A DNA stretch of 64,000 nt from a virus. Every line of letters begins with the position of its first letter. The first letter of the stretch is position 1. The notes below the pieces were generated by a model. That model was not told the origin of the DNA and made no database searches. It saw only the letters and a program-made list of their open reading frames with translations. Both the position numbers and the translations under genes were made by a program. Below, piece by piece: positions 30,828 to 63,398 of this stretch. The DNA lies in IMG/VR virus record IMGVR_UViG_3300025699_000004. One strand, 5' to 3'.

Positions 30828-30850
30828 ATATTATTTTCCTTTATTCGTAT

Positions 30851-32034: not shown

Positions 32035-32036
32035 TT

Positions 32037-34727: not shown

Positions 34728-34742
34728 AACCAGGAAATAATA

Positions 34743-40600: not shown

Positions 40601-43600
40601 AAATTTAGATATTTGATGTATATTAGTTCCCGCAGCAACACCCGTATCATTAGCAACCCCTGTATATAATATAGTTAAATCTAAATCGTTATCAGGAGGA
40701 TTAGCCCATGATAAAAATATATTATTTGAACTTTTATTAGTTTCTTTCCAGAGATGCTGGCCAGGAGGAGATTCATCATTTAGTGCTCTTAAATCTTTAC
40801 TAACTTCTGCACTCTTGTTTCCCTGAATATCATGAGAAGTCAACCTAAAGGTATATGTCCTTCCTCCAACAGCTAAATAATCATACTGACCAGAACAAGT
40901 TACACATCCTCCGTCATCAACTCTAGGTAAAGACCTACTATATATTTCGTTATTTGTGTTATTTTGTATTTTTAAATTGTACTCTTTAAAATCTGAATGA
41001 TCGTTAAAATCTCCAGAATAAAAAGCTGTTATATATGAATTTTGCGTTCCATCATTACCCAATCTAACACTACCTGATAATATTAAATCCACTCCGCCGA
41101 ATTGCATTATAGATATATCATTACTGTTATCAGCTTCCCCAGTATTTCCAGCATGATCTAAAGCTCTTATATGAAAACTTCCATTCAAGTCGGGGCCAAA
41201 ACCCCTATTTTTGTTAAACTGGTCTAAAGGATACACCGCAAAATTAGAGCTTGATTTAATTAAGAAATCATCTTTTCCATTTGTATACAGTGGAGCTATA
41301 TCGTGTTTGCCCGTATATATTCTTGCGTGATTTAAATCTGTATCACTAGGATTATCCCAGTTAAAATGAATATTATCAAATACAATTTTTGCTCGGAAAT
41401 TAGAGCAGGCTCCAGGAGGAGTTCTGTCTCTTTCAGCCCTGAAGAACATTATTTTTTCAGGACCTTGCCCGAAACTATTATATTCAGACCATCTTAATTC
41501 ATAATATTTATCTGGATTCGCCAGCTCAAATTCTCCAGAAAGAATGTTTCCAGTTATCACGTCTTGAGATTTTGTACCAAATACAGAACACCCAGAAAGA
41601 TTACCCTTTCCAGTTTCATTCATTACCCGAGGTCTCTCTATGATATAATCTTGTTTAAAATCTCCATCTAGATAATTTGGAACCGAAAGCATTTTATTCG
41701 CCTGCCCGCCAACCACGGCTTTATCTGACCCATCGTATAAAACTTCATACTCTCCACAATCTTGAACTCCTGATATGCAATATTCTCCGTCCTGCAAGAC
41801 GCCAGGTGTTGCGGCTAAATTTCCGTAATAAGTGTCCGTAACCTCTTGAACTCTAATTCTGTATCCAGCTGAATTAGACTGTCCTTTGCTATAATATTTT
41901 CCATTCTCTTGTGTGTTGTGAAAAAAGAATTCTACCTTGGATTTATTAACTCCTTCTGTATTAACGAAACCAGTCGCTCTAACCACAAGATCCACCGTAT
42001 TTTCTTCTGGAAAACCAAAGCTTACTGGCTGCTTAATGATTTCTGGAGTTGCTGGATTTGGATCTGGACCACCATCGCCAGGAGGTGGGTCAGTCGGTTC
42101 CAGCTCAAAATCGGATTCTTTATAGATCGTATTTAGTTTTTCAACATCCTTGAACTTGTCTTGATCATACTCTAACCCAACAATTCCATAACTTCCGTCT
42201 TCATTAGATGATACAGATAATACTTTAAATTGTTTTGTCGTTACTCCTGCTCCGCACAAATAACCAGCATCCCCAGTTCCTTCAAGTATGTATATATCCC
42301 CTTCTCTTATTTTTTGAGTATTAGTGATTCTATTAGCTCCATCTCTTAAGTTTGATAAAACAGAGTCGTCTAGTAAATAATCATTAAATGTTTTTAAACC
42401 TAAGCCTAGTTTATTATTTACATAATCTCCAGTGATCCCCGTTGATAGAATTAAATCTTGAGTTTCATGTGTTAATATCTTAGCTCCAGAAGGAGTATTC
42501 TCTATGTAATTATTTAAACTAGGATTTAAAGAGGCACTAGAATCTAAATTTGTAAAAGGAAAATTTCTTAAGTTATTGTCGGCTGACCCTATTGAGTGGC
42601 CATTTCTATGTATAAAAGTTTTAAATTGCTTAGACTGTTCTTCTAAGTCTTCCCCAGGTATATTAAAACTTATCGATTGAAAATTATAATCATTTGTATC
42701 TACTGTATCGTCTAATAAAATATAATTATCGCTGGCAACATTTTTATTATTAACAACCTTCTTAACTCTTCCGCCTCCTTTGTAGCCATTTCTTATAGAG
42801 TCAGATACCTCAAAAACATAACCTGGCCTTAAATGCTCCGCAATTTTATCAGTTACGAAAGATACCGTTTCCTCTTCTTTATTTGATGTTAATAAAACCC
42901 ATCTGCCCAACCTTAAAGCTTGATCTTTTGAAGTACAACCAACGGCAGCTAATTCTTTTTCTATAATTCCATGCCTTATTATTCCTTCTGCATCTTCTAC
43001 ATATGCATATTTAGGTAAATAATTTTCTTCTTTATCTTTATAAGCAACCTTTATTGCTGTAAACCTTGTCTGCTTAGATGTTCCAGAATATTGAAAATCA
43101 CCCTGCTTTACATTTGCATTTGTAAATTTCAAACAAGGCTCAGTTATATTATCTTGAGTTATTACAATTTTATTCGCATCAAAATAAACCATTCCCTGGA
43201 AAACCGAAGCTATTTCCTGTATAGCTTTATAAGCCTCCATTCTATTCTGTATCAAAACATTACAAGAATATCTCCTCTCTTTCCTGAATCTATCAGGGTC
43301 AGTATTTGTTGCGAATTTCTTTAACTTTGAAGTGGGAACTAACTGATCGCAATATTTGGCTATCTTGTAAAGCTCAAATTTATTTATGTCGGAATCAGTT
43401 ATATATTCCCCAAGCCCAAACCTATCGTTTGTAATTAAGTCGTATAATATCCATGCTGGATTATCTGTCCACTCTAAATCGTCTTTAAATCTACCATCCC
43501 AGACCCCCACATGCCTATCTTCCACGACTGGGCCGTTTGGCCCATCCCCTGAATCCTCATAATTAGAAGGTACTTTTACTTTTTTTAATTTTAAATCAAA

Positions 43601-44551
43601 AGTTCTTCTGGGTATTTGAGAAAAGCTTTCGGCGCTCAATACGGTTCCCACATAAGCGGAATTAGGATAACTTAAATTAGATTTAGTGATTTCTGTTACT
43701 GTAGCAAGTCTGGCGGAAAATTTAGATCTAAAATTAGTAGGTTCATCTGTTAAATTCCTTATGTATATTTGTCTAGATCTTTTAGAGGAGTCTGCTCCAA
43801 ATTCAGGATCCCTTAATTTAAATAGAATATCTTCCTTATATGAAGATGTGCATACTCCAGTAAAATGAACATAAGCATGGTATTCTGTAGATACAGGGGG
43901 AATGGGTAGTATTTTTTTTGTAGATCGATGATAGTATCCCGTAATGTCTCCCCATATGTGAACCATTCCATGATTGCCCGTCAACCAACCGTCGTTCTCA
44001 GTAAAACTGCATTGCCCCAGCTCTAAAGTAACTCCAATCCAATCTACATCATGATCAATCACACTATGAGAGGTTCTGAAAACAGAAGTTTCATTACCCG
44101 CCAACATCTTTGAATTCGGCAAATTAACGTTTTTAGTGATTGTTTTAGAAGCATACGAAAAATCTTCCAACCAATAAAAGTTATCAACATCAACAATACC
44201 TGCATTACCTTGACCAGTATAAACCCCAGATTGACTTTCTTCGCCGTGCTTAAAAACTGTATTTATACTCCTGAAATTATACAAATCAGGCTTAGCCAAA
44301 TCTGTGGTTATTTTTACAGGTACATCATTTAAATATACTCCTTTTAAAATATCAGAACCGCTAACTAACCTTCCTGTCGCATCGCAAAAACCCTCCACGG
44401 GACCTTCTGATAAAAGGTCTACAGCCTTGAAGTAAGATGTAGACTCGTAAAGGTTTTTTTCATAAGGGGTAACATTACCATGTCCAGTAACAGCCCTAAA
44501 TCCAACATGAGGATTAAGTCCCGTAGCAGCGGCATTTATATAAACAGGCAT
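37640..44551 (-). CDS. J: Lambda gpJ-like tail tip/central fibre protein with fibronectin type III-like repeats
   Basis: DLLSEGPVEG, YPNSAYVG, WDGRFK...WTDNPAWILYDLITNDRFGLG, IAKYCDQLV, RRYSCN, GCTSKDQALRLGRW; repeated D.TPP....W.NP.D.DL units. Confidence 0.9.
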   Translation of the reverse strand: MPVYINAAATGLNPHVGFRAVTGHGNVTPYEKNLYESTSYFKAVDLLSEGPVEGFCDATGRLVSGSDILKGVYLNDVPVKITTDLAKPDLYNFRSINTVFKHGEESQSGVYTGQGNAGIVDVDNFYWLEDFSYASKTITKNVNLPNSKMLAGNETSVFRTSHSVIDHDVDWIGVTLELGQCSFTENDGWLTGNHGMVHIWGDITGYYHRSTKKILPIPPVSTEYHAYVHFTGVCTSSYKEDILFKLRDPEFGADSSKRSRQIYIRNLTDEPTNFRSKFSARLATVTEITKSNLSYPNSAYVGTVLSAESFSQIPRRTFDLKLKKVKVPSNYEDSGDGPNGPVVEDRHVGVWDGRFKDDLEWTDNPAWILYDLITNDRFGLGEYITDSDINKFELYKIAKYCDQLVPTSKLKKFATNTDPDRFRKERRYSCNVLIQNRMEAYKAIQEIASVFQGMVYFDANKIVITQDNITEPCLKFTNANVKQGDFQYSGTSKQTRFTAIKVAYKDKEENYLPKYAYVEDAEGIIRHGIIEKELAAVGCTSKDQALRLGRWVLLTSNKEEETVSFVTDKIAEHLRPGYVFEVSDSIRNGYKGGGRVKKVVNNKNVASDNYILLDDTVDTNDYNFQSISFNIPGEDLEEQSKQFKTFIHRNGHSIGSADNNLRNFPFTNLDSSASLNPSLNNYIENTPSGAKILTHETQDLILSTGITGDYVNNKLGLGLKTFNDYLLDDSVLSNLRDGANRITNTQKIREGDIYILEGTGDAGYLCGAGVTTKQFKVLSVSSNEDGSYGIVGLEYDQDKFKDVEKLNTIYKESDFELEPTDPPPGDGGPDPNPATPEIIKQPVSFGFPEENTVDLVVRATGFVNTEGVNKSKVEFFFHNTQENGKYYSKGQSNSAGYRIRVQEVTDTYYGNLAATPGVLQDGEYCISGVQDCGEYEVLYDGSDKAVVGGQANKMLSVPNYLDGDFKQDYIIERPRVMNETGKGNLSGCSVFGTKSQDVITGNILSGEFELANPDKYYELRWSEYNSFGQGPEKIMFFRAERDRTPPGACSNFRAKIVFDNIHFNWDNPSDTDLNHARIYTGKHDIAPLYTNGKDDFLIKSSSNFAVYPLDQFNKNRGFGPDLNGSFHIRALDHAGNTGEADNSNDISIMQFGGVDLILSGSVRLGNDGTQNSYITAFYSGDFNDHSDFKEYNLKIQNNTNNEIYSRSLPRVDDGGCVTCSGQYDYLAVGGRTYTFRLTSHDIQGNKSAEVSKDLRALNDESPPGQHLWKETNKSSNNIFLSWANPPDNDLDLTILYTGVANDTGVAAGTNIHQISKFQSEVIPLRDFGGDQNKDLYFWLRGVDSSNNTGLFSVGNTDPVTFPGGLLNEVLPHHSGQKLKIQKTTPLRPEHIQLITGIENDTKGDGSSFAYVEYVITGKLNYDHSHYKVDLAKNLGFSPLVGSQLADIEYGINPPTMTGSGVFSNLLANEDYFFRARIKENDGRYSAYTVAKPRPFTTPKDNTNPSNPENFYITSGPKQIFLEWDWPNGADSDLASVVVYKTGIPTGRLNENSTQGKYCWKTQDISGYFDNNKDEYSYILNPGTAFIDSDVETGIFSGYGVGAGDIHDQPRQEVLYHYFLRTVDRSNNTGIGFVSGIASNTHNSYFSDPAKQKTSSFVNQKYGVVPHNLGYVTGGAIDDSYLGNIRASKILTDSITSNTIILANPSGRMVSDNVYAKGLADPKYMYGIGEGLYLDHRMLRIGNPSLGEQGLFWTGEKLGNGDFKQPTWTDIGNGLLGHDIEPNTLEIRGDMTAGSISIGSDPSTQLRIKEDGELSIGNQALRISGYFTGGAGAINQPHIRGNAKPVNVQLNLDDYLPLGKNQFRDKIDAVKAAINRGAFLEINYGNGGQDIRGITTSSTYFTYNDMGTSPVLDYTEGGGQHEKFGYVQLTSPILDYQVDTGWSHVAAGEDRDWWRIVDVRFLVTNEGTLYAQNANIAGTVTANHFEPRQTIILGDEVNPELSVIESFGFRSNENCDVIPSGFQLRGDGTATFWDLKVLSGMISGSSINVGKCDQSNFFRADNEGNISIGPGTVYDDVRNKFHVNNDGDLYAVNAVVSGTISGSAGRIGGLELTENYISTFDVSTSTARNHYTDTDNTGIYIGKDGTFSLANGKGNIIEYAGNNDFVSITGIQSNDFSTALVGGKARGFYLRGSNAGSFVSNFKTDPASASGIASLIDTQLCGEIPFPLANRTYHIISGSKVNYNILSIDQSAGIGTTAFAACVGGFNPSAGNINIGDDLTVTMPNSTNGATKFCFNIGLSRPDV

Positions 44552-49971: not shown

Positions 49972-52900
49972 TTACCTCAAGGAACCGCCTACTCTTTTTT
50001 CTTGTTGTATTACTTGCAATACCGCAGCTTTTACTTTTTCTGCAAATTTCTTTGGGTTTTCTGGAGAACTTCCGCCTGAAGAGGTTTTTGCTGACCCAGA
50101 AGAATCTACATTAACATTGATATTAACTTCGTTGTTATTATTAACACCTTGAGCGCTTGATCCTGACGAACCAGTATTTAAAGTTCCATTGTTTATTTTA
50201 GACATCGTGGAGCTTCCGTACTTGTTAACGGCAGAAGGATTCATTACGTATTCTCCTCCCTGAAGCATCGCTGGAACTTTCCCCCCAGAAGAGTTATATA
50301 TAACTCTACCGCTCTTACTTATGCTTGTTTTAATCCCTGACTCTTGAGCCGCAATTGCTGCCTGAGTCGGATTTTGTTTAGCCATTCTGTTTATAAACGA
50401 CTTGGCCGAATATACATCATCTGGATTTTGGTAGACCTTACCAATAGAGTTTCCCTTTGTGTTGACAAACCCTTTTTTATCCATTTGTGATGTGACCCCT
50501 TTTCTTGCCCTGGATTTTGAAAAATCTGTATTCTTATACCAATCCATTCCCTTTGATAAAGCAACACCTCCCGCTATACCTAACAATGCACCCTGCCAAG
50601 CTTTTCTTTTTTGAGTGCGAGCCCTTTGGTAATTCTCATCTCTGCTTTTCCTTTGCTTAACGGTCTGAAGGTCTTGCCTGAATTGATTTTCCTGCTCGTC
50701 AAAATACTCTTGAATAGTTCTGTCGTTAGCTCTTGCGTAACCACTGAGCCTAGAGTCCATTCCTGTATCCGCGCTTTTAGTCTTGTAAGTAGTTATATCT
50801 CCGTATTTACTTTCATCTACCACGGCTTCTCTAACAGCTGCTCTTGGAGAACTCATTGATAATGATACGGGCCCTCCTTTGGCATATCCAGATATTTCTC
50901 CATTATTTAATTTATTTAAAAAATCAGATCCGTATCTTTGAACAGCGCTTTTCTTGATAACATATTCTCCGCCCATCAGCATTGCTGGAACATCATCTCG
51001 AACACCACTACCTCCTGAGACATAACCGCCTTCAGCTTTCCCTAAACCAAACAAACCTTGCATTCCTCCCACCAACCTACTAGAAGCACTTTGCAAAAAT
51101 GCTTGTTGTACCATTTGCAACAAAGATATTCCAATTTCTTTTATTTTTCCACTTAAATCGTCCGCTTTATTTAAAGCTAAAGTCATGGCGCTAGTAAGCC
51201 CATCCCTAAATGCAAAAGGAAGATCCTGCCCAAGCTTTACATAAATAGATTCTGCCTGAGAATCCAAAGCGGCAAATCCTTGACCAAGGCCTAGATTCAT
51301 GTTTGTTCTAAACTCATTTCCAAATCCCCCATCCCTAGGAGTGACTCTTTCCATTTGCCCTGTCAATTCAACAATCTGTTCCTCCAAGCTAACCATTGCT
51401 TCTGCAGCTTTCCTCCTTTCTTCTGAACCTATAGCAGAATCACTAAAATTTTTCGTTTCGCTTACGAAATCTTTGTTCATTTGTATAAGAGAAGATCTTT
51501 GTTTTACAGTTCCTATGCTTTGCCTTCCTGCGGCAAGCCTTGCATTTTGCACCTCCAGCCTACTTGCTCCTGGATCATTTTGCAAAACCTTAAAAGCTTT
51601 TTCCGCTTCGGCTTGCTTGGCTATCCTGTCAATGCTTGATATTCTTCCCGCCGAAACATTATCCATGTCTCTTAGGTCGTTCAATCTATTAATTGATCCT
51701 CTTGATCCAGACATCACCCTGAAATCAGCCACTTTATTTTTTAAATTTGTGTTTTTTAGTGTGAGATTGTTTGCCTTCTTAAATGCGTCTTCCGCTATAA
51801 TCAAAGCTTCAATACCTTCTATAGCAGTATCTATTTGAAGTTCCAACTGTTCCCCAGAATCTCCACCTTTAGCAGACATTGTCTTTAGCTCTTTTAATTT
51901 ATTCTTTGAATTTTCAAGCCCCATTGAATCAAGTGAAATTGCCTCGACTTTTCCTGCAAAAGCATCGGTACTCTTAAAATTAATTCCGCCATTGGGGTTC
52001 ATCATCTCCCTGGTTACTTTATCAACTTCCGCTTGAACATCTTTAAGAGTTATAACCTTTTGATTTGCTGGATCGGTTGACACTCGTTCAACTTGTTTTT
52101 GAGCGTCTCTAAGTTTTTTCTTATTTCTTAATACTTCTTCTCGTGCTGACGTATCAATCACTCTACTTGCATTTAATTTTGCTTGAGTATTTTTTAGATC
52201 TTTTTCAGCTTTATCCATTTCTGTCTTGAGGTCTGTTACTCTTCTTGGCCCGATTGCCTGACCCTTACCCGCTTCGTATCTTTCCTCTGCTTTTGCAAAC
52301 GCTTGCTTGTCTACATTTAACATATCTCCCAAAAATTGTTTCCTGCTTCCAGTATCGTTAGCTTTTTTTTGGGATGAATTCAATTCTTTTTGAATATTAG
52401 TTCTTTTTGAGATGGCTTCCTTTTTCTTAAGTAATCCAGTTTCATTTAATCCTAAATTTATTTTCTTATCCAGATTGGGGGGATTTTTTCCAGTCAGAGG
52501 CTCTAGTAAATCTTTAACAGCACTTCCTAAATTATTTAAAGCAAAAATCACTTTTTGGTCACTTAATAACCTTCTTATTTCCATCTTTGCTCTGGCCGCT
52601 AATTCTTTACCCTGGATCGATTCTTGCTCTTTAAATATTTTTTCTTGAATATCAGTTTGTCTTCTATTCTCTTGCCTAGTTGAGCCAGATCTAAATATAC
52701 CATCTTTTTCAAAATTTAAATTTGCTTGAGTTAACTTCGATTTAGCTTGAGCCCTAGCTATCGTATTATCTTCTTTCGATGCATTAAAAGACATCCTCAT
52801 TGATTGAGTCGTCATTAATTCATTAATTCTTGCTGAAATAATATTTTGAGATTCTTGCAATATAAGAGCTTCTTGTTGAACTTTTATTTTTTCTAGTTCT

Positions 52901-55900
52901 AATTCTTTTTGTCTGTCAATTACAGAAATTATATCTTGTATAACTTTAATAGTTGCATCGTCAGTTTGTTTCTCAAAATCTAAATTAAACTCAGCTCCCT
53001 GGGCGAACTTTCCGCCCACACCTGCTTTTGCTGCGTCCGCCAGTTTGATAGTTAATTTATTTATCTGTTCATCGGAAAGAGCGACTAAGTCCCTAAGCTC
53101 GCTCATGTCATCTCTGTTCTTAAGATTATTCCTTATGCCATTGGGAGTCCCTATAAATGATTTCCGCATCTTATTGATCTGTTCGAGCCTAGCTTCAGGA
53201 GTCTCCGCTCCACCCAGAATATCCATCGTTCCAGTTATTTTTCCAGAATTCAACTGATCTCTTAATACTTGAAACCCTTCAGTTGCTACTTTATTAAGTA
53301 TCGCTGCTTGCTGGGTAATTTGTAAATTAGTTCCTTTTAATTTTTGCTGAAACTTTGTCGCAAAACCTGCTCTAGAATTTAAGTCATTAGCTTCGATTTG
53401 AGATGATCTCAACGCTTCAGTCGAAGATATTGTTCTTCTTGACATTCTTTTTTGAATATCAGAACCTTGGAATCCCGAAAATTGAGACGAAAATCTTATT
53501 GCACTATTTTGTCTTTGTCCAACACCAGCTGATCTTATCGACTTTATTTGAGCTTCTTGTTTTAAATTAGCTATAGTCGTAGCAAAAGCTTTATCTAAAT
53601 TAAATATCCTTCCAGATAACTTTTCACTCTCTTTCCTCATTTTAAGATTAGCTTCTACAGTTTTTTCTGTTGATTTTAACAGAGCATCGAATGATTGATC
53701 TCCTTTGTTGTAGGCCGCTATTAAAGATTGAAACTGCCTATCTGTTAGTGCCGCAGCTTCAGCTAGCTTGCCAAGATGTTGAGCGGCATCAGCTTCCTGG
53801 TCTCTTATTATTTCTAGTTCAGTTTTAGCGATTTCCTGTTCTCCATATTGTCCCACCGCATACCCCGCAGATGCGCCCGCAGCCATCGTTGCTCCTACCG
53901 CAGTGAGACCCAAGGAGGCTCCAAAAGTAGGTATGGCTGCTAGTGCGCCAACTACTGCGAGACCTATGCCCGCACCTATTCCTAGTCCCCATCCGCCCAA
54001 TCCTTCGAAAGTTCCTACATCTCCACTCGCTCTTCTTTTTATACCTTCTAATTCTTCTGGAGTTCTCAACAAACCTTTAGAGCTTAATTCTTTTCTTTGA
54101 TTTCTTATTCCAGCTATAGCGTCCTTAAATTTATCCTCTTTAAGTAAGCCTGAAGAAATTTGTTGGGCGACAATATTACCAAAAGCTAAACCTTGAGACT
54201 TTGAGTCTTTATTTTTTGTTGCAACTGAAAAATTTTGAATTGATGCGTCTATGCTTAATCTATCTTGAAGCCTTTTGTTCAAATTTTTCATTGCGTCAGC
54301 ATTGCCCATAGCATTAGACATTTCGTCAAAAACTTCGACATCAGCAATCTGTCCCAATGTGGCATTTATAGCCGCGTCAATTCTTTTCAACCCTTGTTCA
54401 TCTCCTTGCCCAAACGCTGTAGCTCTTGTGCCCATTAATCCTTCTAATTGAGTTCCAGCCTGAACACTTCTACTTAAAAGTTGCAATTGCTTTTCTTGTT
54501 TTTGAACTATTTCATCTATAGAAAGAGTCATCTTCTTTGATGAAGAGACAAAACCTATTGCTGCTCCAACTAGCATTCCAGGTAAACCGAAAAGAGCTCC
54601 TATACCTGCCCCCATCATTGTTGAGGACATTCTTTCTTTATCTCCACCCTCTGTTATTTCAAAATTACCGCTTTGCTGATTAAAAGTAGCTCTTTCATCC
54701 CTCGCTCTTGTTGGAGAAACCATTCCAGCTAACATAGGTAATGCAAAAGATAGGCCTAGCCCAAGCTGGCCTCCCATACCGCCCATCTTTCCAAAACTAC
54801 CAAGAGCCCCTTTACCTCTTGTAACTAACCCTCCCGCTCTATTAGCTATACCTGACCCCATCCCACCTTGACCAGACATTCCTCCAAAAAAACCAGCTCT
54901 TATATTATTACCTCTAGCTAAGTGTGATTGAGCTTTTGCCGCAAATCCAGAAGGCTGTGCTCTTTGCTGCTGGGCAGCGTTAACGACCTCTTTCCTTACC
55001 GCCTCCAACCTCTTGAAAGCTGCGGGATTCGCCGCTATTCTTGCAGCTTCTTTTTGAAGCCCTTTAGTTAAACTTTTGATTTGTTTTTTATTACCGTCTG
55101 CAACAGCTTTTTCTAAGGATTTTAAATCTCTTGTAAATCCAGTAGAGGTTGTTCTTACGCCTTTTTGGTCTGTAGTTAATTTCCCGAATTCGCCCTTCAT
55201 TAAACCTCCTCTAGCCAGAACACCCGAAGAAGAAGTGACTCCTGCTGAAGCTGCGAATTTAGAAAAATCACTAGCTGCCCCTCTGCCTCCAGCCATCATT
55301 ACTGAATTCATCGCTTTAGTTCCCATGCCTTCGGTATTAACTCCTTTTTGCCCTAAGTAATCCCGAAGAAATACTTTATTTAAATCTGACTTAGAATACC
55401 CTTTTGTTCCAAACACCCTATCGGAAACCTTGTTCATAGCCGCTTGATTAGCTATTCCACTGCCCAATTGCTGGCCCAAGAATTTAGGCGAATTCATAGA
55501 TGCTTTTGCTGATTTGTCTAAAGTTTTATTCAGGTTCTGTAAAGCTCTTAATGTAGTATTATCCCCAGAGGCTTTAGCTGTAACCATTTTTTCCTTCAAC
55601 ATGTCTTCGTTAAGCTTTCCTCCGCTCATAACGCTAGACATTAAAGGGCCAACTCTGCTATCTTTCATCATTGCTTGAGCAGCATCGTTTCTAAATAACT
55701 GCCTAGCAAAACCTTTATTTCTGTCGCTTAAATTTCCCCTGGATGATTGAGTCCTGACTTCAGCCTCTTTAGCTGATTTAGCTGTATTACCAAATGAAAT
55801 AGCTGCTTTTTGCATTTCGGCTTTTAATTTTTTAGAGCTTGCAGTAGCAGCATCTATTGCTTGGCTGGCATTATAAAAAGATTTCTCCATAGATTTCAAA

Positions 55901-58900
55901 CCCATAGATTCATTAGTCTTATAAGCCATTCTTTTGTTCGCCAAAAAATCTTGAGCCGTTAGTGGAGTTGCATAATTTGGAATCACTCCTTTCGATGAAC
56001 CCTGTCTTGGATTTAATCTCCCATGCAATTTTCTAGCATTCGCTAGCTTTCCGCCTTCTTGCTCGTTATTAACCACAGCAAGCCCAGGATTGGTAAGGCT
56101 TTTTAGAGATGGAGCTGTTACAACTTTAGGAGTTACGCCAAAAGATGCTTCTCTCGATACAGCATTAGACACGGCGTTTGTGAATTCAGGTTTTGTAGAT
56201 AATACATCTCTTGCTCCTGGACCAAATAAGCTATAATTAGGTATATGCCCGTCGCCTTTCAATCCAAACTTCCTTCTTGTTCTAGCGCTTAACGGCTGGC
56301 TAAATAAATTTCTATCAAAACCAGAGCCGCGCGGAGCACCTGTTTGTTTTTTCTTCTCGAAAAGGTCTTTATAAATCTTGTTTATTCTATCTGACTCAAC
56401 CCCCGCTAAAGTCGCAGCCCGCCTAGCTGAATAATTTTCTTTCTCCATTAAATCTTGAGCTTTTATAGAAGCGATCCCGCCTTTACCCAATGCTGAGCCC
56501 AATACAGCGTCTCGTGCCGACATCCCAGTTGAGTTGCCAAAAGAAGCTCCTTGATTTATTCCTATTATATCTCGCAATAATCCAGAATCTACAGCTCGAC
56601 GTGTAATAGCCTCATCCCCTCTAAATCTTCCGCTTGTCGCACCAAATTTATTATTTACAGTCTTAAGATTACCATCTTTATCTATATATTGCGACCCAAG
56701 GGCAAGCCCTCCTGATCCCCCTGGAGCTCTTGGATTGCCTGGGTTACCCAGTCTTGATAAAGCAGTTAGGACGTCAGGGTTTGATCTGGAAAGGTTGTGG
56801 AAAAGTCTTTTGCGCTTATCTAAATTGCTTAAATTTCTTTCTGGATCAAAAGGCAATCCAAGTGGGATCTTAGGTGCCATAGCTTCATTTTGACGAATAA
56901 GATGCGCCATTGGTATGTTCATTCTAAAAGAAGGATCAAGAACATGGCCACTTCCCCTCGTTTGTTTAAAAGCTTTTTGTATATACCCTTGAACAGACCC
57001 GCTCTTTGATCCAGGAGACGATGCTCCAGCAGTTAAAAAGTCTTCTCTTATTAAACTTAACCTGTCTTTCTTTTTTTGCCCAGGAATTAGGCCATCATCA
57101 ATACTTTTTACTCTTGGTATCATTCCATGCTTAGACATGAAATGTTTTTTCTCATCTGCTGTTAAGGCGGATTCTATTCCTATGGAAGTAGATTTTCCAG
57201 TGATATATCTAAAAAAAGATTTCATAACATCAGGGTTCTGCAGGATTTCTCCCTGCCTTTTATTGCTTAAATAATCTAATCCTAATGTATTAGAACTTCC
57301 TTTTGGGAAATTTGACTGAAAATCCTTCATTGACATTCCAGGATAAGATCCTTTAAAGTCAAAAATCCCCTCCTTGACATACATTTTCATAGCCTGTTTC
57401 AATTTCTGCTCAGGCATAAACTCTAAAGCTTTCAGAAATGATATTCGATCCCCCGTTCTTGGCATTGACATGGGGAGATTTTTATCATAATGGAAAGCTG
57501 AATAATTTGGAACGAATCCAGAATTTGCCATATTTGGATCAACTTTTAAATGCTTTCCTTGAGATACGACACTTTGAATTCTATTTAACTTTAGTTTTCT
57601 AAATGCATCAGCCCCTTCACCTGTTGATCCGATCCACATAGAGCGGGTGCCTGTAGCTTTATCCATTTCTCCATAAGAAACATAATTGCCAGGAGGAGGT
57701 GCTCCTTTTTTATATTTATTTACTCCCCATCTAGCATTTTTATAAGTTAAATCGTTGCCAGCTTTAGATGTATAGTTTAAAGATTTAAATAAGCCAGTTG
57801 TTAAGATATTATCCAACTCCTTCATTCCTATCGTATCATCAAACTTATTTGAATGTATTTTGCCTTGCCCTATACTTTTAATTTTATTCGCATTTAACCT
57901 CATTCCAAAATTAGGAACGAACCCTTCGCTAGTGCTCATGTCCCATTTTCCTGGTTTGTCTATTCTCAAACTGCCAAACATATTTTTTGGTATTAAAGTA
58001 TGAGGAAAAAGATGAGGAGGTATCGGTCTATCAGGTTTCATATAGCCAGATTTCCAATACATCATGGCCGCTTTCTCCATCATTGAAGGGCTAAGGTCTC
58101 TAAATCTTTTGCCTACAGATCTTCCTGATGAAACTTTTGGAGTAAAATACTTTTTAGGCCCAGGATTTCTCAAACTTGCATTCATCTCATCAAGCCAAGT
58201 ATTCATAGCTTTATCATCCGAATTCATTTGAGAAGGTAAACCTTTCCCCCTTCTTGCGAAATTAGGAATATGCCCGCCCGACATTCCTATTTTTTCTAAC
58301 ATTGCTTTGGGTACATTATTAGCTGATCCAAAATTATTAGGACCTCCTTTTACTCTTAACATTCCTATTGCGACTTTTTGCAAATCATCAGGAAGGTCTC
58401 TTATGCGTAAGTTTCCTCTATGTTTCCCCTTCGCTTTTAAGTCCGAGCCCACCTTGTTGTCTTTCCTCGTCTTATTCATCCTTAAGATATCGTCGGCCAG
58501 TGTAAGGCCCAAGACAGAGGCGGGAAGGGCTCCTCCAAGCACGGCAGATATTAAGTCTATATGGCTTGTTGGGTTTTGAAATACATCTAAAACTCCCTTC
58601 CCTAATTTTCCGCCCATCTCAAGAGCTTTAGGTCCATATTTACCTACAGCCCCCATGATTTGATCTTGAAATTTATACCCTAAACCTCCCCCTCCTCCAT
58701 AAAGAGTTGCTCTAGGAAATTTCTTCATAAGATCAAAACCTTTGCCTAATCCATGTTTTCCAGCTTCAAAAATGTTGGTATATGCATTATACCCCCCCTT
58801 TGCAGTGCCAATAATACCTCTCCTTATAAGGTCGCCGCCTTTATCAGCTATATTATACCCCCCTTTTAACAAAGAGCCTATATCTTTAAAAGGTGTGCTT

Positions 58901-61746
58901 ATTAATTTTCCTGCAGCGCCGAGTCCTTTACCCAAGAAATCTCTATCTGATGTTTTTGGCTTCTGCCTTCTAAAAAGATTTCCTAATCCGTAATTAGGAA
59001 CATGACCTTGATTTGATATCTTATATGTATAATTCTCGCCTCCCCACATTCCATTTTTTTCACCGATATCTTTTCGGAATTGTAGATCTCCAGCCTTTTC
59101 CACTTTAAATTTCTTTCCCTTGGCTATGCTATCAACAACTCTCATTGCAGAAATAGAAGTTCCTATATCTCCATATAATCCAGTGTATCCATTTTTTCTT
59201 GAATATTCAGCCATATGCTCGTACAAATCTTTTCCGTAACCTTTTCCTCTTAAAGATGGGTTGGCTTCTGAAGTCATTATTACCTGTAATGCTCTTTTGT
59301 TTGGATCTTTAAAGTCGGCGATATCTATAACATGAGATGTTGCAAAATTTTTCCCACCCACACTGGACTCAAAATATACTTGCTTAGGAGGTCCGTACTC
59401 ACTTGGCCCATCATCTCTAACCTGGGTTTTATATTTAGCTGGAATTCTTGCGCTTGCATAATTAGGAACATAACCCCCGCTGTAAGGCATTGGCAATTTC
59501 CTCGAAGACCTTCTAGCTCCGTTTAATGACTCCACCATTCCATAAACTAAATCTCCGCTACCTCCCCAAGACTTAGGAACATTTGCTCCGAAATTTCTAA
59601 GGGCAGCGTTAACATCATGCCTCATTTGGTCTCCCTTTCCCACTATAAAATTTTTGTAAATTTTCTCCCTAATGGAATTCATTTCAGTGCCCGTTGCCAT
59701 AGCTGGGCCATACGAGTGCCAAGTGTCCTTTAATTGTTTGTTGGGAGCTACCTGAAGACCCATGGCTGTTTTTCCTCCATAAATCAATCCTCTTGCTATA
59801 TTAGCGGCACTTTCTGGAGAGTACCTCATGGCGGCATAGTTAGGAATGTGTCCCTGATTTGCATACGGATTAAACCCATGAACTTTTTTAAATGCTTTTG
59901 TATAATTTTTTCCAGCATTACTTCTTTTAGGAGGCATTATTGCTGGCTGCTTCATCCCAGGGAAAGCTCTTACCGATTCAGCTGTATTATAAACAACCCT
60001 ACCCTGACCAGGCATGTTCATCGATTTCACAGCTCCAGGATTATAGCCAGCTGATTTAGCTCCTGCTCTTTCTGCGGAAGCCTCTTCTTTAGACGGATAA
60101 CCCTTAACAAGATTAAAGTTAGGAATGTGCCCTTCGCTCCTTGTTCTTTTTAAATTTTGATTAAACCCAGCTCTCATTACCGCTGGCCCTATAGCCGCAG
60201 CTGCAGCTGCAATTTTTTGCTGTTCCATTGATTGAGCTCTCAAAATCCCCAATATAGTTTTTTCTTGCGCGGCTCGATTTCCTTCTTGCGATAATATTTT
60301 TTGTTGAAGAGCTGAATTCTCAGAAAGTACAGCAACAATTGTTTTTTGTATTTCTTTTTGTTTTTGAGCTACCGTTGTGATTCCCAAAAGCTCTTTCATA
60401 CTACCCGCTAAAAATGAAAATGTTTTTCCAAAAAGTTTAACTAACACACCTAAGAAACTAAGCATGACTGGGCCAGCCAACACATTTCCGATACCCTTGA
60501 TTAACCCTCTTCCTATATCAGCCCCGAAACCTTCACCTGCTGATAAAAATTCTGCAGCGTTACCAAAACCATCTTTAATTATATTTAGAAAGAATCTTAT
60601 GGGCTCATCAAAAGCTAGTTTACCCATTACTGCACCCAATTGTTCTATAGAAGTAACTGTTTGAGAAGTTAAAGCCGCTATAGTCTGATTAAGAAGTGCA
60701 TTTTTTCTATAAGCTTCATCTGTAGCTTGACTTGCTATTTTTGTAGCTCTAGCTAAAATACTATTCTCTTCAGATAAATCTTTGATTGCCGCTTTTAAAA
60801 TATTGATTTGAAAAACTCCACCTACTTGCTCGGCAACAGCCGCTTTCGTTGTGTCTGCTAATGTGTCGTATGTTTTTGATAAATTTTCTAAGACTCTTAT
60901 GGCTGGTAGCGTATTTCCAGCTATATCTCTAACTGCTATGCCAAGCTCTTCAAGCCTTTGGATGGTACTCGCTCTTTGCACCCTAGTAAATATAGTCTTA
61001 AAACTATTACCTATAACTTTACCTCCTCTAGCAGTTTGTTGTTGAGCTGCGGTAACGGCGCCTAACAGCTGATCGAAACTAACTCCAGCATCTTGAGCTA
61101 CAGCACCAGCTCTTGCTATACCATCAATTAAATCTTCTGTACTAACTGCAAATTGAACATCAACAGCAGCCATCTTACTTAATATTTTTGTCGAATCTAA
61201 TCCAGCTTTATTAAATGTATTAATTGCCGCAGTTAAACCAGAAACCGCATTTGCTGCATCTAAACCAGTTAGCCTAGTTAAAATCAGGGCATCGTTAGTT
61301 CTTTTTAAGGTTTCTTCCATTGATAAACCCTGCCTTGCCAATTCAGTAGCCGCAGTAGCTACAGTTGAAAAGCTTTGAGCTGTATTTTTAGCCACTTTGA
61401 ACAAACCTCTGCTCATTTCGTCAAGTTCTTTATTGGTTACTCCCATAACCACATTAATTTCAGCTAATTTCCTCTCGACTTCTACTGTAGATTTTATCAA
61501 AGCGGAGAAAGCTCGTTGTACACCCTGTATAATTCCAACAGATGCACCAAACGCTAAAACTCTGGCATTAGATGCATCTAGTGATTTATTAAATTCACTT
61601 ACAGACCCCGTTATTTTACCAAGAGGCCTTGTAAACTGTTTGTCGTTTACAGACAGGTTTAACCCTCCCCTTCTATTTACGCTACTTACAGCTTTTCTAA
61701 TAGAAGCTTCTAGGCCCGTTTGAACTGTTTGAACTTTTAATGGCAT
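49972..61746 (-). CDS. Tail tape measure protein (3,924 aa) with an internal array of motif-delimited cassettes
   Basis: N-terminal TP901-type TMP core (TAATELARQGLS...AVSTEDL...GNSFKTIFTR), Gly/Ala hydrophobic segments and C-terminal GGYVSGGSGVRDDVPAML..GEYV; lies between the tube and tip genes. Confidence 0.93.
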   Translation of the reverse strand: MPLKVQTVQTGLEASIRKAVSSVNRRGGLNLSVNDKQFTRPLGKITGSVSEFNKSLDASNARVLAFGASVGIIQGVQRAFSALIKSTVEVERKLAEINVVMGVTNKELDEMSRGLFKVAKNTAQSFSTVATAATELARQGLSMEETLKRTNDALILTRLTGLDAANAVSGLTAAINTFNKAGLDSTKILSKMAAVDVQFAVSTEDLIDGIARAGAVAQDAGVSFDQLLGAVTAAQQQTARGGKVIGNSFKTIFTRVQRASTIQRLEELGIAVRDIAGNTLPAIRVLENLSKTYDTLADTTKAAVAEQVGGVFQINILKAAIKDLSEENSILARATKIASQATDEAYRKNALLNQTIAALTSQTVTSIEQLGAVMGKLAFDEPIRFFLNIIKDGFGNAAEFLSAGEGFGADIGRGLIKGIGNVLAGPVMLSFLGVLVKLFGKTFSFLAGSMKELLGITTVAQKQKEIQKTIVAVLSENSALQQKILSQEGNRAAQEKTILGILRAQSMEQQKIAAAAAAIGPAVMRAGFNQNLKRTRSEGHIPNFNLVKGYPSKEEASAERAGAKSAGYNPGAVKSMNMPGQGRVVYNTAESVRAFPGMKQPAIMPPKRSNAGKNYTKAFKKVHGFNPYANQGHIPNYAAMRYSPESAANIARGLIYGGKTAMGLQVAPNKQLKDTWHSYGPAMATGTEMNSIREKIYKNFIVGKGDQMRHDVNAALRNFGANVPKSWGGSGDLVYGMVESLNGARRSSRKLPMPYSGGYVPNYASARIPAKYKTQVRDDGPSEYGPPKQVYFESSVGGKNFATSHVIDIADFKDPNKRALQVIMTSEANPSLRGKGYGKDLYEHMAEYSRKNGYTGLYGDIGTSISAMRVVDSIAKGKKFKVEKAGDLQFRKDIGEKNGMWGGENYTYKISNQGHVPNYGLGNLFRRQKPKTSDRDFLGKGLGAAGKLISTPFKDIGSLLKGGYNIADKGGDLIRRGIIGTAKGGYNAYTNIFEAGKHGLGKGFDLMKKFPRATLYGGGGGLGYKFQDQIMGAVGKYGPKALEMGGKLGKGVLDVFQNPTSHIDLISAVLGGALPASVLGLTLADDILRMNKTRKDNKVGSDLKAKGKHRGNLRIRDLPDDLQKVAIGMLRVKGGPNNFGSANNVPKAMLEKIGMSGGHIPNFARRGKGLPSQMNSDDKAMNTWLDEMNASLRNPGPKKYFTPKVSSGRSVGKRFRDLSPSMMEKAAMMYWKSGYMKPDRPIPPHLFPHTLIPKNMFGSLRIDKPGKWDMSTSEGFVPNFGMRLNANKIKSIGQGKIHSNKFDDTIGMKELDNILTTGLFKSLNYTSKAGNDLTYKNARWGVNKYKKGAPPPGNYVSYGEMDKATGTRSMWIGSTGEGADAFRKLKLNRIQSVVSQGKHLKVDPNMANSGFVPNYSAFHYDKNLPMSMPRTGDRISFLKALEFMPEQKLKQAMKMYVKEGIFDFKGSYPGMSMKDFQSNFPKGSSNTLGLDYLSNKRQGEILQNPDVMKSFFRYITGKSTSIGIESALTADEKKHFMSKHGMIPRVKSIDDGLIPGQKKKDRLSLIREDFLTAGASSPGSKSGSVQGYIQKAFKQTRGSGHVLDPSFRMNIPMAHLIRQNEAMAPKIPLGLPFDPERNLSNLDKRKRLFHNLSRSNPDVLTALSRLGNPGNPRAPGGSGGLALGSQYIDKDGNLKTVNNKFGATSGRFRGDEAITRRAVDSGLLRDIIGINQGASFGNSTGMSARDAVLGSALGKGGIASIKAQDLMEKENYSARRAATLAGVESDRINKIYKDLFEKKKQTGAPRGSGFDRNLFSQPLSARTRRKFGLKGDGHIPNYSLFGPGARDVLSTKPEFTNAVSNAVSREASFGVTPKVVTAPSLKSLTNPGLAVVNNEQEGGKLANARKLHGRLNPRQGSSKGVIPNYATPLTAQDFLANKRMAYKTNESMGLKSMEKSFYNASQAIDAATASSKKLKAEMQKAAISFGNTAKSAKEAEVRTQSSRGNLSDRNKGFARQLFRNDAAQAMMKDSRVGPLMSSVMSGGKLNEDMLKEKMVTAKASGDNTTLRALQNLNKTLDKSAKASMNSPKFLGQQLGSGIANQAAMNKVSDRVFGTKGYSKSDLNKVFLRDYLGQKGVNTEGMGTKAMNSVMMAGGRGAASDFSKFAASAGVTSSSGVLARGGLMKGEFGKLTTDQKGVRTTSTGFTRDLKSLEKAVADGNKKQIKSLTKGLQKEAARIAANPAAFKRLEAVRKEVVNAAQQQRAQPSGFAAKAQSHLARGNNIRAGFFGGMSGQGGMGSGIANRAGGLVTRGKGALGSFGKMGGMGGQLGLGLSFALPMLAGMVSPTRARDERATFNQQSGNFEITEGGDKERMSSTMMGAGIGALFGLPGMLVGAAIGFVSSSKKMTLSIDEIVQKQEKQLQLLSRSVQAGTQLEGLMGTRATAFGQGDEQGLKRIDAAINATLGQIADVEVFDEMSNAMGNADAMKNLNKRLQDRLSIDASIQNFSVATKNKDSKSQGLAFGNIVAQQISSGLLKEDKFKDAIAGIRNQRKELSSKGLLRTPEELEGIKRRASGDVGTFEGLGGWGLGIGAGIGLAVVGALAAIPTFGASLGLTAVGATMAAGASAGYAVGQYGEQEIAKTELEIIRDQEADAAQHLGKLAEAAALTDRQFQSLIAAYNKGDQSFDALLKSTEKTVEANLKMRKESEKLSGRIFNLDKAFATTIANLKQEAQIKSIRSAGVGQRQNSAIRFSSQFSGFQGSDIQKRMSRRTISSTEALRSSQIEANDLNSRAGFATKFQQKLKGTNLQITQQAAILNKVATEGFQVLRDQLNSGKITGTMDILGGAETPEARLEQINKMRKSFIGTPNGIRNNLKNRDDMSELRDLVALSDEQINKLTIKLADAAKAGVGGKFAQGAEFNLDFEKQTDDATIKVIQDIISVIDRQKELELEKIKVQQEALILQESQNIISARINELMTTQSMRMSFNASKEDNTIARAQAKSKLTQANLNFEKDGIFRSGSTRQENRRQTDIQEKIFKEQESIQGKELAARAKMEIRRLLSDQKVIFALNNLGSAVKDLLEPLTGKNPPNLDKKINLGLNETGLLKKKEAISKRTNIQKELNSSQKKANDTGSRKQFLGDMLNVDKQAFAKAEERYEAGKGQAIGPRRVTDLKTEMDKAEKDLKNTQAKLNASRVIDTSAREEVLRNKKKLRDAQKQVERVSTDPANQKVITLKDVQAEVDKVTREMMNPNGGINFKSTDAFAGKVEAISLDSMGLENSKNKLKELKTMSAKGGDSGEQLELQIDTAIEGIEALIIAEDAFKKANNLTLKNTNLKNKVADFRVMSGSRGSINRLNDLRDMDNVSAGRISSIDRIAKQAEAEKAFKVLQNDPGASRLEVQNARLAAGRQSIGTVKQRSSLIQMNKDFVSETKNFSDSAIGSEERRKAAEAMVSLEEQIVELTGQMERVTPRDGGFGNEFRTNMNLGLGQGFAALDSQAESIYVKLGQDLPFAFRDGLTSAMTLALNKADDLSGKIKEIGISLLQMVQQAFLQSASSRLVGGMQGLFGLGKAEGGYVSGGSGVRDDVPAMLMGGEYVIKKSAVQRYGSDFLNKLNNGEISGYAKGGPVSLSMSSPRAAVREAVVDESKYGDITTYKTKSADTGMDSRLSGYARANDRTIQEYFDEQENQFRQDLQTVKQRKSRDENYQRARTQKRKAWQGALLGIAGGVALSKGMDWYKNTDFSKSRARKGVTSQMDKKGFVNTKGNSIGKVYQNPDDVYSAKSFINRMAKQNPTQAAIAAQESGIKTSISKSGRVIYNSSGGKVPAMLQGGEYVMNPSAVNKYGSSTMSKINNGTLNTGSSGSSAQGVNNNNEVNINVNVDSSGSAKTSSGGSSPENPKKFAEKVKAAVLQVIQQEKRVGGSLR
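55972..60132 (-). repeat. Nine dispersed G-[HYFV]-[IV]-P-N-[FY] peptide motifs in the TMP
   Basis: 60115-60132 GHIPNF; 59836-59853 GHIPNY; 59458-59475 GYVPNY; 58990-59007 GHVPNY; 58258-58275 GHIPNF; 57907-57924 GFVPNF; 57502-57519 GFVPNY; 56233-56250 GHIPNY; 55972-55989 GVIPNY. Confidence 0.92.
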
Positions 61747-61835: not shown

Positions 61836-63398
61836 CTATTTCCTTGGAATAGCGACGTGATCAGGAATGTCCACTCTATTGGCTCCTGAAATAAATACGC
61901 CGTGAAGTTTATCTTCTGGACCACCGATTTGGGTGGTGAAAGATAAGTCTACAGATTTATTACTACCAATGTCAGAGCTGATAGATTCACTATCTATTCT
62001 CGCTCCTTTGAAATCAATAATCATTGAATCTGTCGCATCTCCGACTCCGCAACTTTGATTAGCTTTCATTTTAACTTTGACATCATATTCGTCACAAGCA
62101 TCAATGATTTTTGCCAAGTTAGCTTCGTTAACTTCAGAAACAAGAGCGGAAACACTCATTGTTGCAACAACTGGAAAGTCTACAACTCTAGAAAATGCGA
62201 ACCTAGTTCCCAATCTGTCGATAGGACTTCTTGAGAGAGGTAATGAAAGACTAAAGTTTTGAATGTGAACGGATCCGTCTCCGCTTACATCAGTAAATAT
62301 AGAAAGTCCTGTCGGAATTTGCAATTCAATATCACCAGGCCTTAAAGCGGTAGCAGTAACATCTCCCGTAGAAGGAGCCGCTCCTTCACCATCACCCCTT
62401 AGGGTTGAGTGATGACCTACAGAGAAATTAATTCCTGTAACTGGCTTTCCGTCATCAAGAGTAACAGCTGGAATTTCTTTTCCAGTCGTTCCAATATCTG
62501 ACTTCGCATTAAAAAGTTCAACCGTACTAGAGACCGAAGGAATAGACCCTACAGAAGCGTCTAAAGAATAATCACTAAGGAAACCATTACCCAATGAAAT
62601 AACACTTCTTTCTGAAACTGAGCGCGTTGTATTAAAAGCATCAGTTCCTTCAGGAGTAGTTAAAATAAAGAAATTTCTTCCAGCACCATCATCTTGAAGG
62701 TGTCCAGATGAAGCATTAAGAATTGCAGTTCCCATTCCAACTCCCTTATTAGCTGCTCCTTGAATGTAAAATCCAAGATTTCTTTCGTTAAATCCGTCTG
62801 TTGGATAATAAGTGAAATCAAGATTTACTGTGGGTGGCTCAAGAGCGATAGCATCAATTCTAGCAAGCTGACCAAAAGTATTAACATCAGTTCTATTGAT
62901 AGAGAAGCTATAATTCGCGCTTTGTACTCTATGAATTTGTTGAACTAAATTTTCGTAATCTCCACTTATTGCTGGTTGAAGCATTACGCCAGTTGTAGAC
63001 GCTCCAGCCCCCGCTGTTACTGAAGTATCAGCAAATGTCTCAAAGCTCGATTTTTTTGTGAACAGAGCTGCGTTTCCTTGGCCCGCTGCTGTTCCATTAA
63101 TAGCTTGAATCAAATTGAAACCAGGCATCGCAGCTTTTACCGCCCCACTTATATTAACTAAATCAAATTCTTCAGGGCTTGCGGTCAAACTAGTAGAAGG
63201 CGTAACGTCGAACTGCTTTGTTACTTGTGGGTCTTGAGTTAATCCAATAGGACTAACAGGCATAACTGCTGAATGCCACTCGTTCAAGCCTGGCCCACCC
63301 TTCCCAGTTAAGACTCCATTACATATGAAGTGCGCTCCTGTCGAATTAGGGCTAACGAATACCGCTTCACTTTGATATATTACTCTATTTCTTGCCAT
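61836..63398 (-). CDS. Major tail tube protein
   Basis: 520 aa directly upstream of the TMP, with its own terminator; two similar half-domains (RVQSANYSFSINR..., HIQNFSLSLPLSR...); has a paralog at 30886. Confidence 0.8.
   Translation of the reverse strand: MARNRVIYQSEAVFVSPNSTGAHFICNGVLTGKGGPGLNEWHSAVMPVSPIGLTQDPQVTKQFDVTPSTSLTASPEEFDLVNISGAVKAAMPGFNLIQAINGTAAGQGNAALFTKKSSFETFADTSVTAGAGASTTGVMLQPAISGDYENLVQQIHRVQSANYSFSINRTDVNTFGQLARIDAIALEPPTVNLDFTYYPTDGFNERNLGFYIQGAANKGVGMGTAILNASSGHLQDDGAGRNFFILTTPEGTDAFNTTRSVSERSVISLGNGFLSDYSLDASVGSIPSVSSTVELFNAKSDIGTTGKEIPAVTLDDGKPVTGINFSVGHHSTLRGDGEGAAPSTGDVTATALRPGDIELQIPTGLSIFTDVSGDGSVHIQNFSLSLPLSRSPIDRLGTRFAFSRVVDFPVVATMSVSALVSEVNEANLAKIIDACDEYDVKVKMKANQSCGVGDATDSMIIDFKGARIDSESISSDIGSNKSVDLSFTTQIGGPEDKLHGVFISGANRVDIPDHVAIPRK

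Follow-up and report, generated by a model that had tools for sequence, protein, structure and literature searches.

What is a chain of unrelated protein segments doing inside the ruler of a phage tail? The question is raised by a 64,000-nt stretch of viral DNA, IMG/VR virus record IMGVR_UViG_3300025699_000004, which we refer to throughout as the window, and in particular by its gene P0001, which encodes a giant tape measure protein (TMP). Nine copies of a six-residue motif, G-x-[IV]-P-N-[FY], divide one part of this protein into eight segments, here called cassettes. The main finding from a comparison with metagenomic relatives is that these cassettes are modular, exchangeable and selectively maintained units inside the TMP, framed by a conserved first and last member (the N- and C-bookend) and delimited by an invariant linker peptide.

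By its sequence matches the open reading frame (ORF) is a genuine TMP of an uncultured marine lambda-like siphovirus. It matches PF10145 with 88.8 bits against a gathering cut-off of 33.2 (E 5.5e-25) and the tape-measure families of PHROG with E-values down to 1.9e-51, and it is followed by genes for Phage_min_tail (M-like), Phage_tail_L, a tail assembly protein (I-like) and the central fibre J, in an order that is kept in the relatives compared. The domain matches together with these M-, L-, I- and J-like downstream genes therefore identify the gene as the TMP of a lambda-like siphovirus with a Gram-negative-type host. The tail L protein has at most 31% identity to that of any cultured phage, and tblastn with the array as query matched none of 50,697 cultured phage records, so that the clade has no cultured member among those records. 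The relatives described below come from marine metagenomes, including Tara, on contigs of up to about 195–205 kb. At 0.15 nm per residue, the 3,924 aa of the TMP would predict a tail of about 589 nm, or about 381 nm once the array is subtracted.

A re-scan of the protein reproduced exactly the nine motifs, eight segments and spacings reported in the initial annotation of this DNA. The motifs start at residues 539, 632, 758, 914, 1158, 1275, 1410, 1833 and 1920, giving start-to-start spacings of 93, 126, 156, 244, 117, 135, 423 and 87 aa, and such a series is far from what chance would provide (mean 0.0045 and maximum 1 copy in 2,000 shuffles of the TMP). Relaxing the pattern to [IV]PN[FY] adds no further TMP copy to these nine, and the G-prefixed motif was found in none of the other window ORFs. 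Two further claims of that annotation, that the segments are unrelated to one another and that they differ from the helical ruler on either side, are borne out. The eight segments fall into eight separate similarity families, the single likeness between them being that of the first to the last (hhalign 90.9%), which is weak and partly owed to the shared motif. Proline makes up 5.8% of the array against 1.1–1.5% of its flanks and aromatic residues 8.3% against 4.6–4.9%, while residues that favour helix drop to 40% from 49%.

Searching with residues 520–1950 gave 45 other giant TMPs of 2,272–4,845 aa, every one of which carries the motif, in 2–13 copies. When these proteins were cut at their motifs and the pieces clustered into cassette families, the first and last cassettes proved to be conserved, and the inner ones permuted, across the 45 relatives and the window. 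A metagenome scan with a profile of the first cassette added 80 more loci. The 56 complete arrays show 26 architectures, ranging from a single cassette between the two bookends up to 13 cassettes, with inner cassettes permuted, duplicated, gained and lost between the shared bookends. The last-cassette profile, run against 1.84 billion proteins, picked out about 310 clusters at the 50% identity level (E<=1e-3), mostly 2,000–5,468 aa long, and the 140 new representatives listed have 0–18 motif copies. The maximum is a 5,354-aa relative in which 18 motifs enclose 17 segments. Altogether 172 motif-bearing proteins yielded 812 cassettes in 197 families, 122 of them singletons, and in 157 of the 172 the C-bookend is the last cassette. 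Motif spacing is irregular (63–521 aa in the first 46 proteins), on which ground a periodic ruler repeat was rejected.

Two sets of observations indicate that the motif marks the edge of the exchanged unit and that exchange has taken place. Where homologous cassettes have differing neighbours, the alignment begins at positions -4 to 0 of the left motif and ends at +6 to +8 of the right motif, and these homology breakpoints make the motif the boundary of the unit. The TMP of locus L014, 97% identical to that of the window over its first 1,166 residues, is without exactly the 117-aa cassette, and its junction lies inside the motif, the left half coming from one window motif and the right half from the one after it (GGG CAT / GTT CCT AAT TTT), with a microhomology of only about 10 nt. 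Identities also differ from one part of the protein to another: the N-terminal 520 aa are 73–76% identical in all 12 relatives compared, the GNAT-like cassette is 86% identical to that of P0005 and 47–58% to others, the barrel-like cassette 92% to that of P0003 and 45–72% to others, and the C-terminal ruler region is only 30–43% identical across the family. This incongruence between cassettes and N-terminal backbone points to cassette exchange between lineages. The expectation of the initial annotation that relatives would show conserved flanks around cassettes of variable number, order and identity, added or swapped as cargo, thus holds, both in the 26 architectures with their breakpoints at the motif and in the one-cassette indel of L014 with its incongruent identities. 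Median ratios of non-synonymous to synonymous substitution rates (dN/dS) of 0.11–0.27 for all eight window cassettes indicate purifying selection.

The motif itself proved longer than six residues. Its consensus over 259 distinct contexts is the decapeptide A-[SN]-x-G-[FLHY]-[IV]-P-N-[FY]-[ASG], beyond which conservation drops sharply on both sides. In the sequence logo Gly and Pro are at 100%, Asn at 98%, Phe/Tyr at 99% and Ile/Val at 99%; position -2 is Ser, Asn or Ala in 90%, position +6 is mostly Ala or Ser, and position -1 is variable. Codons at the Gly, Pro, Asn, Phe/Tyr and Ile/Val positions vary synonymously, broadly like those in the rest of the gene, and because they do so freely while the residues stay invariant, the motif is selected as a peptide and not as DNA. 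All seven motifs covered by two AlphaFold models lie in segments with a predicted local distance difference test (pLDDT) score below 50, a few residues past the end of one domain and 9–24 residues ahead of the next. Four multi-cassette MAFFT alignments were excluded from the analysis, as short rows were anchored on the wrong motif; two other alignments were verified ahead of the folding.

Conservation within the array is highest in the two bookends, with the signatures G-R-V-V-Y-N-x-A-E in the first and G-L-A-V-V-N-x-E-Q-E in the last, and on this likeness they may be distant paralogues. The N-bookend has a mean column identity of 72% and a dN/dS of 0.20; AlphaFold models it as disordered, with no stable fold predicted (pLDDT 26–53), and a profile search of the PDB returned nothing useful. 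The C-bookend has a dN/dS of 0.12. One short match to it (171 aa) was considered as a free-standing homologue and rejected, being a fragment on a 514-nt contig.

At least three of the inner cassettes are, judging by their models, folded domains: a GNAT-like domain whose acetyl-CoA loop is invariant, a barrel of WYL/Sm-like type and an alpha/beta domain for which no match was found. The GNAT signature that had been read from the letters is confirmed by loop, fold and weak but consistent Pfam matches. Acetyltransf_1 and Acetyltransf_CG each match six cassettes (best E 1.6e-4 and 1.6e-3), with the window copy, at 14.4 bits, below the Pfam cut-off of 20.7 and thus a divergent member by sequence. 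Its motif A (R/Q-x-x-G-x-G/A) is present as R82 G83 G85 Y86 G87, an R-G-x-G-Y-G loop that is invariant in eight sequences, and on this motif the cassette profile aligns to solved acetyltransferases. The model has block pLDDT values mostly of 76–91 and 68 Foldseek matches in the PDB at E<=1e-3, those listed being acetyltransferases or related GNAT-fold acetyl-CoA-binding proteins (HP0935, RimI, Naa50, EctA and the acetyl-CoA-binding domain of ICL2). The dN/dS of this cassette is 0.11, and a word-based search for free-standing homologues turned up a single protein, of 158 aa, encoded on a 2-kb contig.

For the barrel cassette, which had been likened to an Sm/WYL domain, support is likewise found, at modest scores. 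The model (block pLDDT about 59–90) has as its top VIA-align matches the WYL domains of PafBC, BrxR, CapW and DriD, with Z 4.8–5.7 and a root-mean-square deviation of 2.8–3.6 over 68–70 aligned residues; for Hfq/Lsm proteins Z is 3.3–4.0, and the Foldseek probability 0.6–0.7 at E>0.1. Its shape matches in the ESM Atlas are small free-standing viral proteins, one cluster of which is 58% WYL_2. No Pfam match at E<=0.05 was present among the best 25 of 27 families, and the word-based search found no free-standing homologue. The adjoining 423-aa cassette is modelled with an N-terminal alpha/beta domain (block pLDDT 78–96, mostly 84–96), followed by helical sequence of low confidence, and matched nothing in the PDB by profile or by fold. 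These two cassettes are adjacent in 18 loci, with the barrel ahead in nine and behind in nine, and such constant adjacency suggests that they work jointly.

The remaining cassettes are less easily read. Cassette 2 is modelled as helical (block pLDDT about 54–82, with a loop below 50 at model residues 142–153), has a dN/dS of 0.15 and has no Pfam match. The glycine-rich cassette reaches 22.7% Gly in residues 901–1050, contains an uncharged stretch at residues 1065–1084, and scored at best 0.86 in an Atlas feature search, which is below lead level. The view that all segments look globular thus stands for some of them and fails for the disordered first cassette and for the glycine-rich one at residues 914–1157. 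In relatives, cassettes match the helix-turn-helix (HTH) of CI repressors (Phage_CI_repr, 5e-12), SNase (2.8e-7) and PGDYG, as well as PHROG repressor, HTH and endonuclease families, and the precomputed annotation of P0044 and P0045 includes a glucosaminidase (PF01832); most cassettes match nothing.

How might these units be used? TMPs exit the tail first and form a conduit for the DNA, and because they leave ahead of it, the array can be read as a ready-made payload that would reach the host at the very start of infection, its GNAT, HTH and nuclease cargo being suited to cytoplasmic targets. The motif would then be a recognition site at which the polyprotein is cut into single modules after ejection, with Phe/Tyr as P1 and the small residue that follows as P1'; it would also provide, at every junction, the same in-frame position for recombination to yield functional products. 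Linkers that are the sole conserved element between variable domains of a polyprotein are typically protease sites. We favour a processing site because a strict peptide is here the sole conserved element between variable domains and because the aromatic-then-small pattern fits a P1/P1' pair. We put the likelihood of the whole scenario, delivered payload and processing site together, a little short of an even chance.

Several points weigh against it. Of the 28 Pfam families matched by 35 other ORFs of the window, the 25 listed include no peptidase; the TMP and 14 further giant relatives have no peptidase family in Pfam, and the TMP has no HExxH-like motif. Ten ORFs in the 10 kb upstream of a relative's TMP have no Pfam or PHROG match, hence no protease or head gene can be named there. 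To our knowledge, the motif fits no known cleavage specificity. Most cassettes, including both bookends, are without recognisable function, and one is glycine-rich and not globular. Folded domains cannot fit the lumen of the tail tube in three copies, so that an unfolded stored state must be assumed, and the alignments behind the AlphaFold models are shallow (17–22 rows), which may partly explain the low pLDDT at the motifs. A fuller proposal, in which the TMP of a whole marine siphovirus clade is a polyprotein vehicle whose effectors are stored unfolded, ejected before the DNA and cut at the decapeptide, the same peptide enabling their exchange, is one that we regard as doubtful; its cargo would range from an acetyltransferase, DNA-binding proteins and nucleases to a decoy of WYL type and about 200 families of unknown kind.

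The foremost rival explanation makes the motif a docking site on an uncut TMP. A chaperone or translocation factor would bind at each linker, either to hold the adjoining cassette in an unfolded state or to draw it across the envelope; such a partner might be a periplasmic prolyl isomerase-chaperone of the host (SurA/FkpA type), an unfoldase of the cytoplasm or a tail protein conserved among the phages. The motif lies in linkers predicted to be flexible, with an invariant Pro flanked by hydrophobic or aromatic residues, the tail tip has the lambda-type make-up of phages of Gram-negative hosts, and HK97 depends for genome injection on PtsG and the periplasmic chaperone FkpA (as cited in PMC5099701). 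The motif core, Phi-[IV]-P-N-Phi, corresponds to YIPNV, part of WEYIPNV, a phage-display peptide that binds the P1 prolyl-isomerase domain of E. coli SurA with a Kd of 1–14 uM (PMC11401910). However, this resemblance was noticed after the fact, and the SurA consensus Ar-X-Ar-X-Pro does not apply in full, as the place of the first aromatic (-1) is variable and conservation extends only to the second aromatic or hydrophobic position, I/V and Pro. Most chaperone sites are degenerate; this motif is near-invariant although the C-terminal ruler has diverged so far, and cargo such as GNAT, HTH and SNase domains would find no use in the periplasm. A complex prediction, run without controls, of E. coli SurA with the N-bookend and its two motifs scored 0.00 and speaks neither for nor against binding. 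Docking is, in our judgement, on the unlikely side. That the array has only a structural or assembly role, with cassettes as spacers of length or stiffness and the motif as a hinge, trimer-register clamp or lumen contact, we consider clearly unlikely; differing cassettes would in that case do no more than alter the length of the tail. TMP length sets tail length at about 0.145–0.15 nm per residue, embedded regions counted (PMC5099701), array size varies greatly among relatives, and the bookends and the glycine-rich cassette look non-globular; yet the irregular spacing of the motif is unlike that of ruler repeats, the array is proline-rich where the rest of the protein is not, and a GNAT fold with its acetyl-CoA loop, HTH and SNase domains and low dN/dS imply biochemical functions that a spacer does not need.

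The conserved Asn, followed by Phe or Tyr, could also be the reactive residue of the motif, undergoing succinimide self-cleavage at Asn-Phe/Tyr, an isopeptide cross-link like that of the HK97 capsid, or glycosylation by sugar enzymes of the phage. Auto-cleavage at Asn is known in virion proteins from the maturation of nodavirus and tetravirus capsids, and the window has a large glycan-synthesis island that would be relevant to glycosylation. Yet rare copies have Ser in place of the Asn (four by eye; 1% in the logo), no catalytic partner residues were identified, the idea rests on analogies, and glycosylation is unlikely for a protein internal to the tail; we consider a reactive Asn very improbable. 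An N-glycosylation sequon was rejected, there being no N-x-S/T and position +6 being mostly Ala. Hardly credible, finally, is the possibility that the motif is a recombination scar or hotspot at the DNA level only, with no function as a peptide: breakpoints do lie inside the motif, but its codons vary synonymously around invariant residues and the one junction observed offers very little homology. The initial annotation had listed a recombination anchor among the roles of the motif, and as a sole, purely DNA-level role this was rejected on the synonymous variation.

Set beside known systems, the array has partial likenesses. Bioactive regions in TMPs are familiar from the Rpf-like motifs of mycobacteriophage TM4, the peptidase region of T5 pb2 and lysozyme or M23 domains elsewhere. 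With TP901-1 (PMC5099701) and with such enzymatic-region TMPs the window protein shares the PF10145 family, the place in the tail module, hydrophobic segments and functional regions inside the ruler; those TMPs, however, have one or two fixed regions directed at the cell wall, whereas here up to 17 shuffled segments share one invariant delimiter and carry cargo of a cytoplasmic type. Polyvalent proteins string together 2–15 unrelated conflict-type domains per polypeptide in variable architectures, for which proteolytic release has been proposed (Iyer et al. 2017, PMC5512222). The eight unrelated cassettes, a GNAT included, in one giant polypeptide are similar, although delivery with the DNA would here follow only from the fate of TMPs, and the hallmark MPTase, ART, ParB-like, ArdC-N and MuF domains were not found by Pfam in the TMP, 100 cassettes or 14 giant relatives. 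That paper never mentions tape measure proteins or a conserved delimiter between domains (PMC5512222). In actinobacterial contractile injection systems, TMP-related effectors of the Sle1 type have a single C-terminal functional domain (PMC13277306, PMC11126660). They resemble the present case in having a tape-measure-like carrier in a tail-like tube and a swappable functional domain that becomes active once ejected, and differ from it in belonging to a bacterial nanomachine and in having neither a multi-cassette array nor a delimiting motif.

The MARTX toxins of Vibrio are mosaics of effector domains that vary by strain and are cut between domains after delivery. They too present an array of domains of varying number and identity in one polypeptide, but they have their own cysteine protease domain, which cuts after Leu in unconserved linkers, whereas here no protease domain was found, the linker is a strict decapeptide and the carrier is a virion tail. 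The internal proteins of T4 are hypervariable anti-host cargo that is packaged in the head and injected, each with a capsid-targeting N-terminal leader cut by the prohead protease. Variable cargo marked by a short conserved peptide and turned over like cassettes is common to both, although the T4 proteins are encoded by separate genes and travel in the head, and here there is one tail protein. By analogy, the array works most like polyvalent proteins and MARTX toxins, without the hallmark domains of either. A literature search found no paper describing cassettes arrayed between motifs in this way in a TMP. What is new is that cassettes are shuffled, framed by bookends and separated by a universal delimiter; virion proteins with variable effector domains are the known kind to which they belong.

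The coordinates of the TMP gene, its parts and its upstream neighbour are collected in the table.

Table. Features of the TMP gene and its upstream neighbour in the window; the motif given for a cassette is the one at its start.
Feature	Residues	Coordinates	Strand	Starting motif	Basis or occurrence
TMP gene P0001, 3,924 aa		49972–61746	-		open frame
PhageMin_Tail domain, inside conserved N-terminal 520 aa	118–310	60817–61395	-		PF10145
Cassette array, nine motifs and eight cassettes	539–1925	55972–60132	-		motif count, clustering, composition
Cassette 1, N-bookend	539–631	59854–60132	-	GHIPNF, 60115–60132	first cassette in 79 loci
Cassette 2	632–757	59476–59853	-	GHIPNY, 59836–59853	20 copies in 19 loci (family 4)
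GNAT acetyltransferase-like cassette	758–913	59008–59475	-	GYVPNY, 59458–59475	Pfam, loop, fold
Glycine-rich cassette	914–1157	58276–59007	-	GHVPNY, 58990–59007	11 loci; dN/dS 0.22
117-aa cassette	1158–1274	57925–58275	-	GHIPNF, 58258–58275	7 copies in 6 loci; missing from 97%-identical L014
WYL/Sm-like beta-barrel cassette	1275–1409	57520–57924	-	GFVPNF, 57907–57924	model and fold matches
423-aa cassette	1410–1832	56251–57519	-	GFVPNY, 57502–57519	always beside WYL-like cassette
Cassette 8, C-bookend	1833–1919	55990–56250	-	GHIPNY, 56233–56250	last cassette in 70 loci
Ninth, closing motif GVIPNY	1920–1925	55972–55989	-		motif scan
Three long uncharged Gly/Ala-rich membrane-type stretches, downstream of array	2328–2346, 2373–2403, 2582–2628	53863–54765	-		sequence composition only
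P0047, 520 aa, directly upstream of TMP		61836–63398	-		beta-rich; protein of 520–604 aa

In many relatives the closing motif is without its Gly, appearing as SGVPNY, SAVPNY or AAVPNY. A distant subgroup (L008, which is P0029, with relatives P0030–P0036) keeps the last bookend and the motif and has the first bookend replaced by a cassette of 194–241 aa; its first motif lies near residue 606–646, and it holds HTH and SNase cassettes. Locus L094 (JAQXAG010000048.1, 61.5 kb) was the only match to the last cassette among 185,579 species genomes, on a contig binned in a metagenome-assembled genome of Candidatus Neomarinimicrobiota, which could be a weak lead to a host and equally a binning artefact.

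Near the C-terminus of the TMP the motif V-P-A-M-L-x-G-G-E-Y-V occurs twice (50245–50277 and 50959–50991 on the minus strand, residues 3824–3834 and 3586–3596, respectively), each copy being followed by a similar 25-residue stretch. The pattern V-P-A-x-L-x-x-G-E-Y is also present in the consensus of 13 distant relatives and is thus a conserved element of the TMP C-terminus. The J-like central tail fibre (37640–44551, minus strand) has 2,303 aa, of which known J families match only residues about 21–637. Upstream, the gap of only 90 nt between P0047 and the TMP leaves no room there for the two small genes of tail assembly chaperones (G/GT type) that are usually present; P0047 itself has no Pfam, PHROG or PDB sequence match, and its role may be that of a large tube protein or of a chaperone of an unusual sort.

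Elsewhere in the window, about 20 consecutive genes at about 8390–23578 (minus strand), together with genes near 28154–35864, include several that match Pfam families of nucleotide-sugar and polysaccharide synthesis. Matches are to GDP-mannose dehydratase-type proteins (four; 1.6e-103), epimerases, RmlD-like proteins, WbqC, FkbM-type and other methyltransferases, glycosyltransferases, a sulfotransferase and a cytidylyltransferase, the families not being mapped to single ORFs. These matches mark the region as a glycan-synthesis island of a large, jumbo-sized siphovirus. The 35 ORFs scanned also gave matches to the large and small subunits of ribonucleotide reductase, dUTPase and deoxynucleoside monophosphate kinase.

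The arrays bear on how far a tape-measure ruler tolerates a non-helical insert, in this case one of more than 1,000 residues, and foreign proteins might be loaded into phage tails with the bookends and motif as a natural scaffold. The known aids to early infection that act before phage gene expression are head-packaged internal proteins and polyvalent proteins, and the TMP array points to a third, modular route by way of the tail's own ruler. Its signature is searchable, as the approximately 310 clusters and 197 cassette families, most of them without an assigned function, attest. If the cassettes are effectors, the arrays would be a catalogue of candidate anti-defence and host-takeover proteins, and if the TMP does act as a polyprotein vehicle, these marine siphoviruses would possess a phage counterpart of the MARTX toxins, able to mount counter-defence before any phage transcription.

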